The translations under genes were made by a program, and so were the position numbers. The notes beneath the pieces are model-generated. The model saw only the letters and a program-made list of their open reading frames with translations. It ran no database searches and was not told where the DNA came from. From assembly GCF_054482525.1 (NCBI RefSeq), contig NZ_CM137006.1: 64,000 bases of DNA, one strand, 5' to 3'. Numbering within the stretch: the stretch's first letter is position 1; every line of letters begins with the position of its first letter. Positions 2,462 through 60,269 of the stretch are shown piece by piece.

Positions 2462-3193
2462 ATGAAAAAGTTAGTTCTTGCCGCTTTACTTGCTTCCTTT
2501 ACTTTCGGTGCTTCTGCCGCAGAGAAAATCAATTTTGGCGTTTCAGCCACCTATCCCCCCTTTGAATCTATAGGTGCTAATAATGAGATTGTCGGCTTTG
2601 ATATCGACCTGGCAAAAGCCTTGTGCAAACAAATGCAGGCAGAATGTACTTTTACTAATCACGCGTTCGACAGCCTGATCCCGTCACTGAAATTCAGAAA
2701 ATATGACGCCGTAATCTCCGGTATGGATATCACCCCGGAGCGTAGCAAACAGGTATCGTTTACCACGCCCTACTATGAAAACTCAGCCGTCGTGATTGCC
2801 AAAAAAGATACCTACAAAACGTTTGCCGATCTGAAAGGCAAACGTATTGGGATGGAAAACGGTACTACGCACCAGAAATATATTCAGGATCAGCACCCGG
2901 AAGTGAAAACTGTCTCCTATGACAGTTATCAGAATGCCTTTATCGATCTGAAAAATGGTCGTATTGATGGGGTATTTGGTGACACAGCGGTGGTTAATGA
3001 ATGGCTGAAAACCAACCCGCAACTGGGCGTTGCGACTGAAAAAGTGACCGATCCGCAATACTTCGGCACCGGCCTGGGTATCGCTGTACGTCCGGATAAC
3101 AAAGCTCTGCTGGAAAAACTGAATAACGCGCTGGCAGCAATTAAAGCTGACGGTACATATCAGAAAATCAATGACCAGTGGTTCCCACAGTAA
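2462..3193 (+). CDS. artJ: Arginine-binding periplasmic protein ArtJ
   Basis: ATG at 2462 (MKKLVLAALL...) gives 243 aa; paralog of ArtI; separate transcription unit after the artM terminator. Confidence 0.9.
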   Translation: MKKLVLAALLASFTFGASAAEKINFGVSATYPPFESIGANNEIVGFDIDLAKALCKQMQAECTFTNHAFDSLIPSLKFRKYDAVISGMDITPERSKQVSFTTPYYENSAVVIAKKDTYKTFADLKGKRIGMENGTTHQKYIQDQHPEVKTVSYDSYQNAFIDLKNGRIDGVFGDTAVVNEWLKTNPQLGVATEKVTDPQYFGTGLGIAVRPDNKALLEKLNNALAAIKADGTYQKINDQWFPQ

Positions 3194-3197
3194 GATT

Positions 3198-3228
3198 CAG
3201 AAAGCCGCACCTGCGGCTTTTTTATTGC
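3198..3228. terminator. Bidirectional intrinsic terminator shared by artJ and rlmC
   Basis: Hairpin aaagccgcacctgcggcttt flanked by A/T runs between convergent genes. Confidence 0.7.
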
Positions 3229-4349
3229 TTCACCAGCAGCGTCAGCACTTCATAGTGCGCGGTGTGCGGGAACATATCAAAAAGCTGTACCCGTTCGATG
3301 CGGTAACCTGGCAGTTCGCGGATATCTTTCGCCATGGTTTGGGCGTTACAGCTGGAGTAGATAATAAAACGCGGTGCCATCGTTGAGAGATAATCACACA
3401 GCGGTTTACCAATGCCGCGGCGCGGCGGGTTAACCAGCACCAGCTCCGGCACTTCCCCCTGGGCGGTGGCAAACTGAGTGGAGTCCAGCGCCTGAAATTG
3501 CAAACGCGTTAAGCCCAGTTCAGCAGCTGACTGATTCGCACAGGCAATGGCCTCTGGTGCAATTTCGATCCCGGTTAACTGCATGTCAAGCGTCGCGCAG
3601 TGTAAACCAAAGCCCCCCACGCCGCAGAAGAGATCCCACATATGGTTTACCGGTAGTTGCCGCACCCAGTCGCGCGCGGTAGCGTAAAGCTGGCTGGCGA
3701 CCGCCGGATTGGTCTGGAAGAAACTTTGCGGACGGATCCACAGCGGTACGTCGTTAAAACGCTCTGCCAGCGCCTGTTGTTCGGTCAGGTAGATCTCCGT
3801 CTCCCCTTCCATGATCGCCATATGTACCGGCTGAATATTGACGGTAATAACTTTTAGCTGCGGCAGTTGTTCCTGTAACCACGGCAGCGCCTTACGCAGT
3901 TGCGCCAGTTTGGTTTCAGAACGCAGTACAAAGCGCAGCATCATACCGCCATCGCTCTGGCTTTCGGTCAGCAGAATGTATTTCAGTTCGCCACGCTTAC
4001 GCGCCACGTTGTAGGGCGTTAACCCCGCTCGGGCGATAAACGGTTTTAGCGCCGCAAAAACGGGCGCAAATGAGGCAGGATAAAGCGGGCAGTCACAAAG
4101 GTCTTCTGGTGTGCCGTCTCGATGCAGCATACCGAGCAGTGGTTTTTCAACGCTACCACTCACCACCATTTTGGCTTTATTACGAAACCCTTGTTCCGGG
4201 CCTGACACCGGCGCGCACCATTCCTCAACCGGAAAGTCGGCGAGCAGATTTTTAAGATCGGCGGTTTTAGCGGAGAGTTGCTCTGGAATCGGCTGCGTTA
4301 TCCACTGACAGGAACGACAGCGACCCGCGTCGTAAAGTGCGCACTGCAT
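3222..4349 (-). CDS. rlmC: 23S rRNA (uracil747-C5)-methyltransferase RlmC
   Basis: 375-aa ORF with N-terminal Cys cluster (CRSCQW) and SAM methyltransferase fold; synteny. Confidence 0.88.
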
Positions 4350-4389
4350 ACATTGACCTTCACATCATCAGGGGCGACGATTATACACA

Positions 4390-4878
4390 TTATTGCAACT
4401 GGAAGAACCGCCGACTGGTCGAGGGAACGAACAGCAGCATCAGGATGAGCATATCCGGCAGCTTCTGCAGCATCAGGCTATGGAAGATTTCACGTTTTGA
4501 TTCACCGGGAATGCTGAACAGCTCCGGATAACCATACCCCAGCGAAGCCGCCCACAAGTAACTTGCGGCCGTGATTTGTGTCAACAGATACAGCCAGCGC
4601 GCCCAGCGACGCCCTTTCACCAGTGAAAACGCACACCAGATCTCAATAAAAACCAACACCAGACTGCTTAAAAAGACCAGCGTTAAACTCCAGGTTTGTA
4701 CGCTGCGATGAATGAACTCGCCAATACCGCGCACGCCCAGCGTATTGAAAATCATCAGCACGTCGAGGCCACGGATCATAATAATGGCGAGCGCCGCCAC
4801 CTGCACCAGCGCAGGCACATTCAGGCGAGCATGAGATGAAGATGTTTTCTTAAAAAATCCCAACGTTTCGTCTTCCAT
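4390..4878 (-). CDS. ybjO: Inner membrane protein YbjO
   Basis: 162-aa hydrophobic ORF; synteny. Confidence 0.8.
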   Translation of the reverse strand: MEDETLGFFKKTSSSHARLNVPALVQVAALAIIMIRGLDVLMIFNTLGVRGIGEFIHRSVQTWSLTLVFLSSLVLVFIEIWCAFSLVKGRRWARWLYLLTQITAASYLWAASLGYGYPELFSIPGESKREIFHSLMLQKLPDMLILMLLFVPSTSRRFFQLQ

Positions 4879-6733: not shown

Positions 6734-7867
6734 TTAAACCGTCAGCACCACACAGCTGTCCACTTCCCAGCACAAACGCACTTCGTCGCCCCAGGTCGGT
6801 AACCCTTTACGATGACGATGGGCGTTTTGTAGCTGGGCGCTAATCATCTGCCCACTTTTCAGACGAACGTGATACACCGAAAGATCGCCGAGATAGGCAA
6901 TGTGTATCACCTCCCCCACCGCGAAGTTACAACCATTGGCGGGCGGCTCTTCGCAAAGCATGATTTTTTCCGGACGCAGCGCTACGTGTACCGGCACGTT
7001 ATCAACCACTGAAGCATCTGCATCGACTTTCAGTGGGTGCACCAGTCCCGGCGAATAAAGCACCAGACCATCTTCCTGACGCTCTTTGAGTACACCTTCA
7101 AAGACATTAACCGAACCGATAAATTCAGCGCTATAGCGGGTGGTCGGATGCTCATAGATCTCTTCCGGTTCGCCAATCTGGACAAATTTCCCGCGATTCA
7201 TAATGGCGATACGCCCCGCCATGGTCATCGCCTCTTCCTGATCGTGAGTAACCATCACGCAGGTCACACCGACGCGCTCCAGAATATCCACCACTTCAAG
7301 CTGCATCCGGTCACGCAGCTTTTTATCCAGTGCGCCCATCGGCTCATCGAGCAGTAATAGTTTCGGGCGCTTGGCAAGGCTTCGGGCCAGTGCCACACGC
7401 TGTCGCTGACCGCCGGAAAGCTGATGCGGTTTGCGTTTGGCGAACTCCTGCATATGCACCAGCCCGAGCATCTCATTGACCCGGCTGGCAATTTCCGCTT
7501 TCGGCAATTTGTCCTGTTTCAGGCCAAAAGCGATATTCTGTTCCACGGTCATATGCGGAAACAGCGCGTAAGACTGAAACATCATATTGATGGGGCGCAG
7601 GTAAGGCGGTACCTGTGACAAATCGACGCCATCGAGCATAATCTGCCCGACAGAAGGTTGTTCGAAACCTGCCAGCATACGCAGCAGCGTGGACTTGCCA
7701 CAGCCGGATGCGCCCAGCAGCGCGAAGATTTCACCTTTGTAGATGGTCAGGCTGACATCATCCACCGCATGTTGACCATCGTAGGATTTGGTGAGGTTGC
7801 GGATTTCTAATAGCGGCGTCAGCGCCTTACGGGTTTTCGCCTGCGGGCGAGGGATAGCGTCATTCAC
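6734..7867 (-). CDS. potG: Putrescine ABC transporter ATP-binding protein PotG
   Basis: 377 aa; Walker A GASGCGKST and ABC signature LSGGQRQR. Confidence 0.9.
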   Translation of the reverse strand: MNDAIPRPQAKTRKALTPLLEIRNLTKSYDGQHAVDDVSLTIYKGEIFALLGASGCGKSTLLRMLAGFEQPSVGQIMLDGVDLSQVPPYLRPINMMFQSYALFPHMTVEQNIAFGLKQDKLPKAEIASRVNEMLGLVHMQEFAKRKPHQLSGGQRQRVALARSLAKRPKLLLLDEPMGALDKKLRDRMQLEVVDILERVGVTCVMVTHDQEEAMTMAGRIAIMNRGKFVQIGEPEEIYEHPTTRYSAEFIGSVNVFEGVLKERQEDGLVLYSPGLVHPLKVDADASVVDNVPVHVALRPEKIMLCEEPPANGCNFAVGEVIHIAYLGDLSVYHVRLKSGQMISAQLQNAHRHRKGLPTWGDEVRLCWEVDSCVVLTV

Positions 7868-53911: not shown

Positions 53912-55030
53912 TTATCCCGCCGGGATCATAACCAACAAAACATATCCCACCAGCGCCGCCCACAACAGCATCGGTATTGAATAGAGATGGAAACGCCACC
54001 AGATACGGCGATCGTTCGCCATCCGTAACGCAATCAAATTTGCCAGCGATCCGGGTAATAAACCAAAGCCACCCACGTTTACCGCCCATGCCAGTAATAA
54101 AGACGGCGGCACATAATTGAGCAGCAAAATCGTGCTCGGCACGTTACTGATCACCTGCGATAAACCGATTGCCGTTAACCATAATCCGGGTTCGGATAAA
54201 TGACTCACGTTACTTAACACCCCCTGCAAAGCTGGCAGTTGGGTTAGTAAATGGACGTCGATAAACATCGCCATAAACACCAGCAGCAGCGTCCAGTCCA
54301 CACTGAGCAACACGCGACGTGCCAGCAGCGCAAAGCCCACCGCCACAATCACCAGTCCCCACAGCTCTTGTTTTAACTCCAGCGCCATCAGAAAGACGAT
54401 ATACAGCCCCAGACAACTCCACACCAGCCGCGGTTTCCACTCCGGCGTTTGCGCCCCCGTATGGTATTGCAGCGCCTTTCCAGGGAAACAACACCAGCAC
54501 AGGAGCAGGAGCGTCAGCATCATTGCGCCAGCCAGTGGTGCCATTTGGGCAATAAATCCGGCAAACGAAAGACCAGAACGTCCCCAGATAAGAATATTTT
54601 GCGGGTTGCCAATTGGCGTCAGTAGCGAACCAGCGTTGACTGCCAGCGCTTCAAAAATAATCAGCCGATTAACCGGGATCTCACACAGTCTTTTTAGCGT
54701 GATAGTCAGCGGAACAACAATAAACAGCGCGACATCGTTGGTCAGAAAGGTAGAAAGCAGCGCCGCCGCCAGCACCATAAACATCGCCAGCCGACGCTCC
54801 GTAGCAAAGCGGCGCACCATTTTGCGCCCCAGCACATCAAAATAACCGCTTAGCTCCACACCTTTAGTCAGCAGCATCAGGCCGCTTAAGGTGATGATGG
54901 TGTGCCAGTCGATAGCAGCAGGCCAGGATTTCGGTGCAAAGGGAACAAAAAAACTTAATCCGATGCCAACAAGAATTAATAACTGAAAAAAACGATCGCC
55001 TTGCAGCGTGCGTAAAAAAGGCAGGCTCAT
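53912..55030 (-). CDS. ybiR: Putative transporter YbiR
   Basis: 372-aa polytopic membrane protein; 4-nt overlap with mntR. Confidence 0.85.
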
Positions 55031-55494
55031 TTGGCACCGTGTTTCTGGGTAAACAAACGAAAGGCATCCAGCGTCTCTTCACTAACATGGTGCTCCATGC
55101 CTTCCGCGTCGCGACGGGCGATTTCCGGACTGACGCCCAACACCAACAAGAAATTTTCGACTATCTGATGTCGCTCGCGGCTTTCCTGCGCCAGTTTCTC
55201 TCCTTCTGCCGTTAAAAACACGCCACGCCAGGGGATCATTTCAATCAGCCCCATGGTTGCCAGCCGCTTAAGCATTTTCGCCACCGTCGGTTGCGAAACC
55301 CCCAGACGAGCAGCCATGTCCACCTGACGAGCTTCCCCCACTTCCCTGATCAAGTCAGAAATCAGCTCAACGTAATCATCAATAAGCTCGCGCCGATGCG
55401 CCTCTCTGACCTGGCGGAACCCTTCAACGTGCTCTTCCACGTTCACTAACTGCGTCACTTTTTTTGCTGTTGGCGTACCTGCGCGACGACTCAT
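55027..55494 (-). CDS. mntR: Manganese-responsive transcriptional regulator MntR (DtxR family)
   Basis: 155 aa. Confidence 0.9.
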
Positions 55495-55587
55495 TGTGCT
55501 TCCTCATTATGGTGACGCATACCTAGCGTTCTCATTTCGTGCGCACATTGTAAACCAGAGTTGCGAAGGTACAAAAAATTAACGTTT

Positions 55588-55625
55588 TAGCAATAGCTAT
55601 ATAATATAGCCTGTGCTATATCTGT
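55588..55625. promoter_or_regulatory. Candidate MntR operator(s) upstream of mntS
   Basis: AT-rich dyads containing repeated atagc/gctat half-sites (agcaatagctatataatatagcctgtgctatat). Confidence 0.4.
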
Positions 55626-55679
55626 ATGTAATGCAATCATCCCTCAAGGATCGACGGGATTAGCAAGTCAGGAGGTCTT

Positions 55680-55808
55680 ATGAATGAGTTCAAGAGGTGT
55701 ATGCGCGTGTTTAGTCATTCTCCCTTTAAAGTACGGTTAATGCTGCTCTCTATGTTGTGCGATATGGTCAACAACAAACCGCAGCAAGATAAACCTTCCG
55801 ATAAATAG
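55680..55808 (+). CDS. mntS: Small protein MntS (manganese homeostasis)
   Basis: 42-aa sORF MNEFKRCMRVFSHSPFKVRLMLLSMLCDMVNNKPQQDKPSDK; AGGAGG ribosome-binding site 5-10 nt upstream; not in the supplied ORF track (below its length cut-off). Confidence 0.85.
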   Translation: MNEFKRCMRVFSHSPFKVRLMLLSMLCDMVNNKPQQDKPSDK

Positions 55809-56079
55809 CGGCGTCGCGGTACGCCGCTTCACTCCTGCTTTTATGCAGGCACAACGCGTTTTGGTCTGAAAAACCCCACTTTTTGTCGGATTTGCAATCC
55901 CCTTCGCAAAAGATTTGTTCGTCAGTAGTTGACCTGAACGGCGGCTCGCTCTATCTTCTTGCAGCCCTGCGTATATTGCGGCTCGCGGATGCGGACCCCT
56001 TTCCCCTCTTCACGCACTCTTGCAGGTATTGACCCTTGACGCCAGGGTAAGCACATGGCGTTTGTTACGATAGTGGCAT

Positions 56080-57663
56080 ATGAATTTAACCCTCAAAGAA
56101 TCGCTTGTTACCCGTAGCCGGGTATTTAGCCCGTGGACTGCGTTCTACTTTTTACAGTCGCTATTAATTAACCTCGGCTTAGGTTATCCCTTCAGTTTGC
56201 TCTACACCGCTGCGTTTACGGCTATTTTGCTTTTGCTATGGCGAACATTGCCTCGCGTACAAAAAGTTCTGGTCGGTGTCAGTTCGCTGGTGGCGGCTTG
56301 TTATTTCCCTTTTGCTCAGGCCTACGGCGCGCCTAATTTCAATACATTGCTGGCATTGCACTCCACCAATATGGAAGAGTCGACCGAAATCCTGACGATT
56401 TTTCCGTGGTACAGCTACCTGGTCGGCTTATTTATTTTTGCGCTCGGCGTAATAGCAATCAGGCGGAAAAAAGAGAGTGAAAAAGCGCGCTGGAATACCT
56501 TCGACAGCCTGTGTCTGGTATTCAGTGTGGCGACATTTTTTGTTGCTCCCATGCAAAACCTGGCCTGGGGCGGCGTATTTAAACTGAAAGATACTGGCTA
56601 TCCGGTATTTCGTTTTGCTAAGGATGTCATCGTCAATAATAACGAGGTGATCGAAGAGCAAGAACGGATGGCAAAACTTTCCGGAATGAAAGATACCTGG
56701 ACGGTCACTGCCGTTAAGCCGAAATATCAGACCTATGTGGTGGTGATCGGTGAAAGCGCGCGTCGCGATGCCCTCGGTGCCTTTGGCGGTCACTGGGACA
56801 ATACCCCGTTTGCCAGCAGTGTTAACGGTTTGATATTTGCTGACTACATTGCCGCCAGTGGCTCCACGCAGAAATCGCTTGGCTTAACGCTCAATCGCGT
56901 AGTCGATGGCAAACCACAGTTTCAGGATAACTTTGTCACCCTGGCAAATCGCGCGGGCTTCCAGACCTGGTGGTTTTCCAACCAGGGCCAAATCGGCGAA
57001 TATGATACCGCTATCGCCAGCATCGCCAAACGTGCAGATGAAGTGTATTTCCTGAAAGAAGGTAATTTTGAAGCAGATAAAAACACGAAAGACGAAGCGT
57101 TACTGGATATGACCGCTCAAGTGCTGGCGCAAGAGCACTCGCAACCGCAGCTGATTGTTTTACATCTGATGGGCTCACATCCGCAGGCCTGCGACCGGAC
57201 ACAAGGCAAATACGAAACCTTTGTGCAATCGAAAGAAACGTCGTGCTATCTCTATACCATGACGCAAACAGACGATTTACTGCGCAAGCTGTACGATCAG
57301 TTACGCAACAGCGGCAGCAGCTTCTCGCTGGTTTACTTTTCTGACCACGGTCTGGCCTTTAAAGAGCGTGACAAAGACGTGCAATACCTTGCCCATGATG
57401 ATAAGTATCAGCAAAATTTCCAGGTGCCTTTTATGGTCATTTCGAGCGACGATAAAGCGCATCGGGTGATTAAAGCCCGCCGCTCTGCCAATGACTTCTT
57501 AGGCTTTTTCTCGCAGTGGACGGGAATTAAAGCGAAGGAAATTAACATCAAATACCCGTTTATATCTGAGAAGAAAGCCGGGCCGATATACATCACCAAC
57601 TTCCAGTTACAGAAGGTGGATTACAACCATCTCGGAACCGATATTTTCGACCCGAAACCTTAA
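56080..57663 (+). CDS. opgE: Phosphoethanolamine transferase OpgE (YbiP)
   Basis: 527 aa; membrane N-terminus and sulfatase-like domain. Confidence 0.88.
   Translation: MNLTLKESLVTRSRVFSPWTAFYFLQSLLINLGLGYPFSLLYTAAFTAILLLLWRTLPRVQKVLVGVSSLVAACYFPFAQAYGAPNFNTLLALHSTNMEESTEILTIFPWYSYLVGLFIFALGVIAIRRKKESEKARWNTFDSLCLVFSVATFFVAPMQNLAWGGVFKLKDTGYPVFRFAKDVIVNNNEVIEEQERMAKLSGMKDTWTVTAVKPKYQTYVVVIGESARRDALGAFGGHWDNTPFASSVNGLIFADYIAASGSTQKSLGLTLNRVVDGKPQFQDNFVTLANRAGFQTWWFSNQGQIGEYDTAIASIAKRADEVYFLKEGNFEADKNTKDEALLDMTAQVLAQEHSQPQLIVLHLMGSHPQACDRTQGKYETFVQSKETSCYLYTMTQTDDLLRKLYDQLRNSGSSFSLVYFSDHGLAFKERDKDVQYLAHDDKYQQNFQVPFMVISSDDKAHRVIKARRSANDFLGFFSQWTGIKAKEINIKYPFISEKKAGPIYITNFQLQKVDYNHLGTDIFDPKP

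Positions 57664-59621: not shown

Positions 59622-60269
<648 letters not shown>

Follow-up and report, generated by a model that had tools for sequence, protein, structure and literature searches.

The mntS (rybA) Gene of Escherichia coli: Promoter, Candidate MntR Operators and a Leader That May Be a Target of CsrA

Introduction

Manganese homeostasis in Escherichia coli has been described in terms of MntR, Fur, the mntP riboswitch and the small protein MntS, and the effect of MntR reported for mntP is activation. Transcription of mntS is repressed by manganese-bound MntR (Martin et al. 2015, PMC4361602), and in a PmntS-gfp fusion manganese was found to repress only when MntR was present (PMC9806134). 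The MntS protein raises intracellular manganese and helps metallation, a manganese phenotype that was reproduced by a construct carrying the ORF and its Shine-Dalgarno sequence alone (PMC4361602); it has been seen by Western blot in Salmonella (bioRxiv 10.1101/2020.05.26.116038), and it was found to bind and inhibit the exporter MntP (bioRxiv 10.1101/2023.06.02.543501). In the same preprint, Wright et al. (2023) proposed that MntS arose from the signal peptide of SitA and that its link to MntR was inherited. The locus has also been described as a small RNA gene: in the K-12 annotation mntS (b4705) lies inside the ncRNA rybA (b4416), and a 205-nt form of RybA is cited in PMC4361602, as against the 340 nt of the K-12 annotation.

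The DNA considered here is a window of 64,000 nucleotides from contig NZ_CM137006.1 of the RefSeq assembly GCF_054482525.1, read on one strand and numbered from its first letter. A sequence-only reading of this window had placed a small gene in the interval 55560–55808, with a strong ribosome-binding site and with dyads resembling MntR boxes upstream. The locus was compared with mntS of K-12, with the MntR targets mntH, mntP and dps, with leaders repressed by CsrA and with a sitABCD locus from Affinibrenneria salicis; the features found are collected in Table 1.

Identity of the Locus

The 42-codon ORF with its AGGAGG ribosome-binding site (55670–55675) was borne out. Its product, of 42 aa (MNEFKRCMRVFSHSPFKVRLMLLSMLCDMVNNKPQQDKPSDK), is shorter than the default minimum of 60 aa used in listing ORFs and surfaced when this was lowered to 20 aa, in keeping with the remark of the sequence-only reading that ORF-length filters miss the gene. 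The peptide had been assigned to MntS, with a mismatch on alignment named beforehand as the outcome that would speak against this; the alignment gave a product identical to MntS of K-12, and the NCBIfam equivalog NF033226 (small_MntS) matched residues 1–39 of the 42 with 96 bits and E = 6e-28, the cutoff of the model being 36 bits. The scan of the peptide with Pfam returned no family because the Pfam copy scanned was without PF26599 (MntS), an entry that is precomputed for all 120 MntS homologs listed. As expected of an MntS protein, encoded by a stand-alone ORF of about 40–44 codons, the product has 42 aa and carries the MNEFKRC...HSPFKVRLMLL core.

A query of 551 nt around the ORF was matched at 100% identity in many E. 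coli chromosomes, with matches in 5421 of 5426 complete genomes, and the annotation beneath the match reads mntS (“manganase accumulation protein MntS”) and mntR. Over about 500 nt, K-12 MG1655 differs from the window by three SNPs, one in the leader of mntR (55523) and two downstream of the 3' hairpin (55842 and 55852), so that the ORF, ribosome-binding site, leader and dyads are base for base those of the K-12 mntS region. The neighbours ybiR, mntR, opgE, ompX, yliM, rhtA and dps are also common to the two, whereas the K-12 record runs in the orientation opposite to that of the window.

The divergent gene was likewise identified as mntR, its product matching the MntR equivalog NF008273 with 269 bits (cutoff 153) and carrying the Pfam domains Fe_dep_repress and Fe_dep_repr_C, in agreement with the RefSeq annotation; it is separated from the ATG of mntS by 185 bp. 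The order ybiR-mntR, then mntS-opgE on the other side of the divergent intergenic region, was kept in all nine of the other loci fetched, which came from different taxa. The interval 55560–55808 therefore almost certainly holds the E. coli mntS (rybA) gene together with a promoter repressed by MntR and manganese. As originally drawn, it takes in the promoter, operator, leader and ORF, but it leaves outside the 3' hairpin (55808–55827) and the remainder of RybA as far as 55952.

Table 1. Features of the mntR-mntS region, in the coordinates of the 64,000-nt window.
Feature	Position	Strand	Remarks
mntR	55027..55494	-	155-aa Mn-sensing DtxR-family regulator, divergent from mntS
Likely mntR -10, TACAAT	55547..55552	-	Putative promoter assignment
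Conserved promoter/operator block	55570..55632	.	Common to the divergent mntR and mntS promoters; 10-genus alignment
MntR dyad 1 (candidate), TTAGCaataGCTAT	55587..55600	.	One mismatch to ATAGC-N4-GCTAT; centre at -19.5 from the mntS start
mntS/rybA -10, TATAAT	55600..55605	+	Read from the sequence; 8 nt from its last base to the annotated 5' end of RybA
MntR dyad 2 (candidate), ATAGCctgtGCTAT	55606..55619	.	Exact ATAGC-N4-GCTAT; centre at -0.5, over the transcription start
CsrA CLIP-seq peak_81 (mntS)	55612..55734	+	Mapped from Potts et al. 2017, Supplementary Data 1
RybA/mntS transcript	55613..55952	+	340 nt; K-12 ncRNA rybA 852725..853064 mapped by alignment
Leader hairpin AUCCCUC / AAGGAUC / GACGGGAU	55639..55660	+	Loop GGA at 55648-55650; covariation
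Shine-Dalgarno AGGAGGU	55670..55676	+	Read from the sequence; AGGAGG 4 nt before the ATG; GGA at 55671-55673
mntS CDS	55680..55808	+	ATG start, 42 codons plus stop; ORF listing, NCBIfam, K-12 alignment
3' GC-rich hairpin GCGGCGU-cgcggu-ACGCCGC	55808..55827	+	Fold; begins at the last base of the stop codon; terminator-like

Promoter and Candidate MntR Operators

The atagc/gctat dyads noticed upstream of the ORF are real, the one nearer the gene being exact and the other departing from the pattern at one position (Table 1). The first dyad abuts the -10 element TATAAT, and both dyads contribute to a 15-nt inverted repeat (55588–55602 and 55604–55618) returned by the repeat search. The K-12 5' end of RybA, mapped through the alignment, puts the start of mntS transcription at 55613. 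The start site was taken from the K-12 annotation, as a simple sigma-70 promoter scan gave no call for a plus-strand promoter of mntS, which was due to the lack of a good -35 element. The promoter and terminator scan of the locus listed two sites on the minus strand and one on the plus strand, at 55929–55957.

The interpretation of the dyads as MntR boxes was strengthened by their recurrence at other MntR targets, by their position at the start site, by their conservation and by the reported repression by manganese and MntR. For the exact 10-base dyad, 0.03 occurrences would be expected in a 64-kb window; two were found, a number reached by none of 100 shuffles. The second occurrence, at 59703–59716, lies 50–63 nt upstream of the start codon of dps, a gene whose place among the targets of MntR is stated in the title of Yamamoto et al. 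2011. When the K-12 mntH region was fetched as an independent test of the motif, an exact dyad was found 17–30 nt upstream of the ATG; upstream of K-12 mntP, one exact dyad is accompanied by a TTAGC...GCTAT variant which is the same as dyad 1 of mntS. The pattern A-Y-ATAGC-N4-GCTAT-R-T is common to the six sites at mntS, dps, mntH and mntP. These sites resemble one another in sequence and differ in arrangement: only one site, an exact one, is present at mntH and likewise at dps, whereas mntP, like mntS, has a pair made of one exact site and one TTAGC variant. The distance between the paired sites is 19 bp in mntS, where their overlap with the core promoter is what repression would lead one to expect; in mntP it is 40 bp, and the sites lie 366–406 nt upstream of the ATG.

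Comparison across genera showed that the block at 55570–55632 is the best-conserved part of the locus. In an alignment of ten genera, 50 of its 63 columns are invariant, and its mean pairwise identity of 0.93 compares with 0.78 for the ORF and 0.58–0.64 for the flanking non-coding DNA; the operator elements themselves reach 0.93–0.99. Eleven of the 14 columns of dyad 1 and 13 of the 14 columns of dyad 2 are invariant. A 21-nt operator core (TAGCCTNTGCTATATCTGTAT) was found in at least 120 matching stretches of species-representative genomes, almost all of them from Enterobacteriaceae. Together with the nine loci fetched earlier, the genome-scan matches made up a list of 129, of which 121 have an intact MntS ORF 70–80 nt downstream of the core; with the distance widened to 50–80 nt, an MntS-type ORF is present in nearly every readable locus listed. 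Among the other eight matches, three lie ahead of an MntS that begins with MSEF or has a shorter leader, two are truncated where the locus ends, one precedes a divergent 33-aa relative and one precedes sitA. One match to the core, in an AT-rich metagenome-assembled genome of the Campylobacterota, was set aside as a chance occurrence.

That the dyads might be nothing but AT-rich palindromes arising by chance, or generic promoter sequence with no regulator site in it, can scarcely be credited. The region is indeed AT-rich and overlaps the -10, and a search that tolerates one mismatch shows no significant enrichment in the window, with 4 sites where 1.4 are expected, a number that 5 of 100 shuffles also reach. 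The exact dyad, however, is far in excess of expectation, with both of its occurrences at reported MntR targets, and the same dyad is present at mntH and mntP; moreover, all genera have the same half-sites, whereas the -10 that lies between them varies (0.77 identity) and the spacers of the dyads tolerate changes. The two dyads are therefore regarded as probable MntR operators, a reading drawn from sequence comparison.

From this arrangement a mode of action can be proposed. Transcription of mntS would start at about 55613, from the TATAAT element, with the two adjacent dyads centred at -19.5 and -0.5. With manganese in plentiful supply, manganese-loaded MntR from the divergent gene would occupy both dyads, and two adjacent MntR dimers would then exclude RNA polymerase, since spacer, -10 and start site all lie under the dyads; the geometry makes such promoter occlusion the most likely mode of repression. 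With manganese scarce, the 67-nt leader and the 42-codon ORF would be transcribed and then translated from the strong AGGAGGU Shine-Dalgarno sequence, after which MntS would bind and inhibit the exporter MntP, and manganese would be kept in the cell.

The same two sites could in addition regulate the divergent mntR-ybiR promoter, a further role that is considered rather unlikely. A start for mntR at about 55541 was obtained by mapping the mntR 5'UTR feature (853136–853182) from Supplementary Data 1 of Potts et al. 2017, and relative to it the dyads are centred at -52.5 and -71.5, positions typical of activators. The K-12 annotation calls MntR a dual regulator and the sites of mntP lie far upstream; the likely -35 and -10 of mntR are placed within the conserved block, and ATTGTAAA, at the -10 of mntR, is conserved both in the 10-sequence alignment and in the alignment with the Affinibrenneria locus described below. 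Against this, no statement of mntR autoregulation was found in the literature searched, and the start of mntR rests on a feature table in a supplementary file. Repression of mntS itself is the function that the sites are here assigned.

Coding Function and the RybA Transcript

A search for homologs of MntS returned 136 proteins, nearly all of 40–44 aa and named MntS, from Escherichia, Citrobacter, Salmonella, Klebsiella, Enterobacter, Kosakonia, Kluyvera, Trabulsiella and other Enterobacteriaceae. In 15 MntS sequences the residues M1, N2, E3, K5, R6, V10, F11, H13, S14, P15, F16, V18, R19, L20, L22, K33, P34 and P39 are invariant, and K17 and M21 are present at 90% or more. In the 10-sequence DNA alignment the pairwise identities of codon positions 1, 2 and 3 were 0.81, 0.89 and 0.61, respectively. 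Because the third position varies most, the ORF is, as far as its pattern of substitution goes, under selection at the protein level.

The possibility that the transcript works mainly as the non-coding RNA RybA, with an incidental or secondary ORF, lowering aroF and aroL under peroxide stress via TyrR, was weighed against this evidence and appears highly improbable. It has on its side the annotation in K-12 of a 340-nt ncRNA that holds the ORF, as well as an effect of RybA on aroF and aroL which PMC11878033 reports, citing Gerstle et al. 2012. The codon-position signature of protein selection argues against it, as does the keeping of ORF length and motif in at least 120 species, and so do the detection of the MntS protein and the reproduction of the manganese phenotype by the ORF and Shine-Dalgarno construct (PMC4361602). 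Of the RNA itself, the segment that follows the 3' hairpin (55828–55880) is poorly conserved (0.49 identity), the 340-nt RybA fold is no more stable than those of shuffled sequences (z = 0.07), and an Rfam scan of 54500–56500 at E ≤ 1 gave no match. In RNAalifold, covariation was not found in the conserved block upstream of opgE. The transcript is thus best read as the mRNA of MntS, and a small RNA role for RybA would be in no conflict with this coding function.

At the 3' end, the terminator-like hairpin is present in 101 of 124 loci and is mostly followed by 6–8 T in 10 nt. The Escherichia tail, TTCACTCCTG, has 4 T and is a degenerate U-tract, and a second, weaker hairpin was folded at 55834–55849; the terminator scan called no Rho-independent terminator at the mntS 3' end. 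The degenerate U-tract of Escherichia may explain the existence of the 340-nt and 205-nt forms of RybA.

The mntS Leader and CsrA

Within the leader, the first 20 nt are invariant, whereas the stretch from there to the Shine-Dalgarno sequence diverges (0.58 identity); the GGAG of the Shine-Dalgarno sequence is again invariant in the 10-sequence alignment. Despite this divergence, most species keep a hairpin in the leader with A-N-GGA in its loop. The hairpin was found by an explicit count of pairs and by per-sequence folding. Among 83 distinct leaders, 82.7% of the cells at its six stem pairs hold standard pairs, compared with 72.8% in shuffles, and double changes were seen at all six pairs; the covariation score of 0.315, against 0.193, was reached by none of 500 shuffles and lies above that of every slid register. 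Among 110 unique leaders, A-N-GGA is present in 105, and in 73 a GGA lies in the loop of a minimum-free-energy (MFE) hairpin, an arrangement found in 12.8% of shuffles. The loop GGA and the GGA of the Shine-Dalgarno sequence are 23 nt apart in E. coli, a spacing that suits bridging by a CsrA dimer. With two exceptions, the spacing is 21–29 nt (median 23) across the 106 leaders in which it could be measured.

An indication of CsrA binding is available from published CLIP-seq data, in which peak_81 (K-12 852943–853065, minus strand, log2FC 1.93, padj 5.8e-12) falls on mntS (PMC5694010). Mapped to the window, the peak covers the leader and the early ORF, and its maximum, at 55673, lies inside the Shine-Dalgarno sequence. 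Neither mntS nor manganese is mentioned in the main text of Potts et al. 2017 (PMC5694010). The loop, CAAGGAU, also fits the core of the SELEX consensus ruACArGGAugu quoted there (PMC5694010).

Together, the peak in the leader, the covarying hairpin with GGA in its loop and the near-fixed spacing of the two GGA motifs led us to consider CsrA as an additional layer, not exclusive of MntR, in which a CsrA dimer would control mntS translation directly by bridging the loop GGA and the Shine-Dalgarno GGA, so that the access of ribosomes to mntS would depend on the activity of CsrA. This is offered tentatively, as a serious possibility that still falls somewhat short of being the expected outcome. 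The likeness to leaders known to be repressed by CsrA consists in two GGA motifs 23 nt apart, of which one is looped out by a hairpin and the other belongs to the Shine-Dalgarno sequence, and in a peak in vivo; a difference is that in E. coli itself the hairpin is not the MFE structure. Several observations stand against it. The CLIP evidence comes from a single dataset, in which no effect on mntS expression is reported, and mntS did not turn up among the entries consulted in ribosome-profiling and RNA-seq tables. RNAalifold, applied to the 83-leader alignment, did not call the hairpin, its sole prediction being a trivial 4-bp helix in the invariant 5' part, and the MFE fold of the E. coli leader pairs UCAAGGAUC with the Shine-Dalgarno and AUG region instead. 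The mere presence of GGA is in modest excess (106 of 110 leaders, compared with 86 of 110 in shuffles), and the hairpin is absent from at least two species (loci L123 and L044). Furthermore, a 2025 preprint describes contact of the mntS 5'UTR with the 3' extension of pre-16S rRNA, which is a different interaction.

Comparison with a sitABCD Locus

The match of the operator core that precedes sitA sheds some light on where the mntS promoter may have come from. In Affinibrenneria salicis (Pectobacteriaceae; locus L095), the 21-nt core has on one side a divergent mntR, whose product matches the MntR equivalog with 241 bits, and on the other a full-length SitA of the manganese type, and the mntR -10 and dyad 2 of this locus align with those of E. 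coli. Residues 13–33 of the Affinibrenneria SitA (RSPFTLRLMLLGML...) match the MntS model in register with E = 7e-4, under the cutoff of the model; a BLASTP comparison of MntS with this SitA was not significant (E = 0.6), and the homology rests on the sub-cutoff profile match only. The mntR-sitABCD locus therefore resembles that of mntS in its operator core and its divergent mntR, and differs in having the peptide as the N-terminal part of a 309-aa periplasmic binding protein, a leader of about 300 nt and a degenerate dyad 1. The comparison agrees with the origin of MntS from a SitA signal peptide and suggests that the DNA of the promoter and operator may have been inherited as well.

Conclusions

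The mntS gene has already been published together with its product, regulator and mechanism, and essentially all E. coli RefSeq genomes carry its annotation. The sequence-only reading picked out a genuine 42-codon gene together with its operator from the raw letters, despite the ORF-length filters that are usually applied, and the locus can serve as a positive control for such scanning. The only lead beyond the known picture is the control of the mntS leader by CsrA, for which the peak was already published and the comparative evidence comes from the present analysis. The mntS leader could quite possibly, though this is not the outcome to be counted on, be a conserved and direct target of CsrA across the Enterobacteriaceae that gates the translation of mntS. 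If this is true, CsrA would add a post-transcriptional input to a circuit otherwise governed by MntR only, and would link manganese to the control of central carbon metabolism and stationary phase.

Putative Regulatory Elements in the Window

The window was found to hold a second exact MntR-type dyad (ATAGC-N4-GCTAT), ATAGCcggtGCTAT, with the dps start codon 50–63 nt downstream. The dps gene has reportedly been assigned to the MntR regulon (Yamamoto et al. 2011), and the position of this dyad fits such an assignment. In the mntR leader, the window carries a C at one position, versus an A in K-12; the K-12 base gives ACATAGC, which resembles an MntR half-site, but the partner half-site is absent and the substitution is probably meaningless.

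Three conserved elements were found in the gap between mntS and opgE (55881–56062), namely a promoter-like site, an inverted repeat and a conserved block. The first base of the putative −10 of the promoter-like site is also the annotated 3′ end (55952) of RybA, the K-12 transcript containing mntS. No covariation was detected in this stretch with RNAalifold, although helices were predicted, and the stretch may represent the promoter and 5′UTR of opgE. The GC-rich hairpin at the 3′ end of mntS is followed in Escherichia by a degenerate U-tract, TTCACTCCTG; in most other genera, the tail of this hairpin is T-rich, with 6–8 of 10 positions being T (loci L005–L133). The degenerate tract in Escherichia may account for read-through in K-12 and for the long RybA annotation.

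CsrA CLIP-seq peaks were also listed at neighbouring genes (Supplementary Data 1, Potts et al. 2017, PMC5694010). Peak_82 (log2FC 0.84, padj 0.02), weaker than the mntS peak, lies over the mntR start and the first part of its coding sequence, and the 5′UTR of ompX carries two peaks, 79 and 80.

Features in the window and at loci of other genomes
Feature	Source	Position	Remark
MntR-type dyad	Window	59703–59716	Exact
dps start codon	Window	59766	ATG
mntR leader SNP	Window	55523
CsrA peak_82	Window	55275–55498	K-12 853179–853402
U-tract	Window	55828–55837	Degenerate
Promoter-like site, TTGACC-17-TATCTT	Window	55929–55957	Conserved
Inverted repeat, TTTGC-N10-GCAAA	Window	~55894–55913	Conserved
Conserved block GACCCTTGACGCCAGGGTAAGCACATGGCG	Window	~56031–56060	Immediately 5′ of opgE ATG (56080)
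Locus without leader hairpin	Enterobacter sp. kpr-6 (L123)	7732–7781	Leader 50 nt
Locus without leader hairpin	Enterobacter sp. BIGb0383 (L044)	7354–7426	Hairpin segment replaced
Operator core, short leader, 33-codon ORF	MAG labelled Erwinia sp. UBA8792 (L076)	203–350
Operator core before SitA	Affinibrenneria salicis (L095)	3086–4444	mntR divergent

Related Loci in Other Genomes

A Pfam-A scan of the MntS peptide, run with one library copy, returned no family, so a check based on Pfam alone would miss mntS; PF26599 (MntS) is precomputed for every MntS homolog in the protein database.

Among the loci matching the operator core (a 21-nt conserved piece of the mntS operator), the one from an assembly named Chryseobacterium sp. 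18061 (L127) presents an mntS locus of the typical Enterobacteriaceae kind, and this assembly is therefore probably mislabelled or contaminated. The match in a Campylobacterota MAG (L079), where the MntS ORF is absent, was rejected as a chance occurrence in AT-rich DNA. Two Enterobacter species lack the leader hairpin, with operator, SD and MntS all kept, and the hairpin is thus dispensable in some lineages.

In the MAG labelled Erwinia, the operator core is followed by a leader of just 42 nt without hairpin and a stand-alone 33-codon ORF, MKKPLLLQLLCRSPFTLRLLLLETLVTGKKTCR, with a strong terminator behind it. The encoded peptide did not match the MntS model and resembles a SitA signal peptide more than MntS; this ORF could be a remnant, either independent or intermediate. 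In Affinibrenneria salicis, the operator core precedes full-length SitA rather than MntS, and the SitA signal peptide gives an in-register hit to the MntS HMM, below the cutoff of the model (E = 7e-4). This layout supports the published hypothesis of a SitA origin, including at the level of the promoter DNA.
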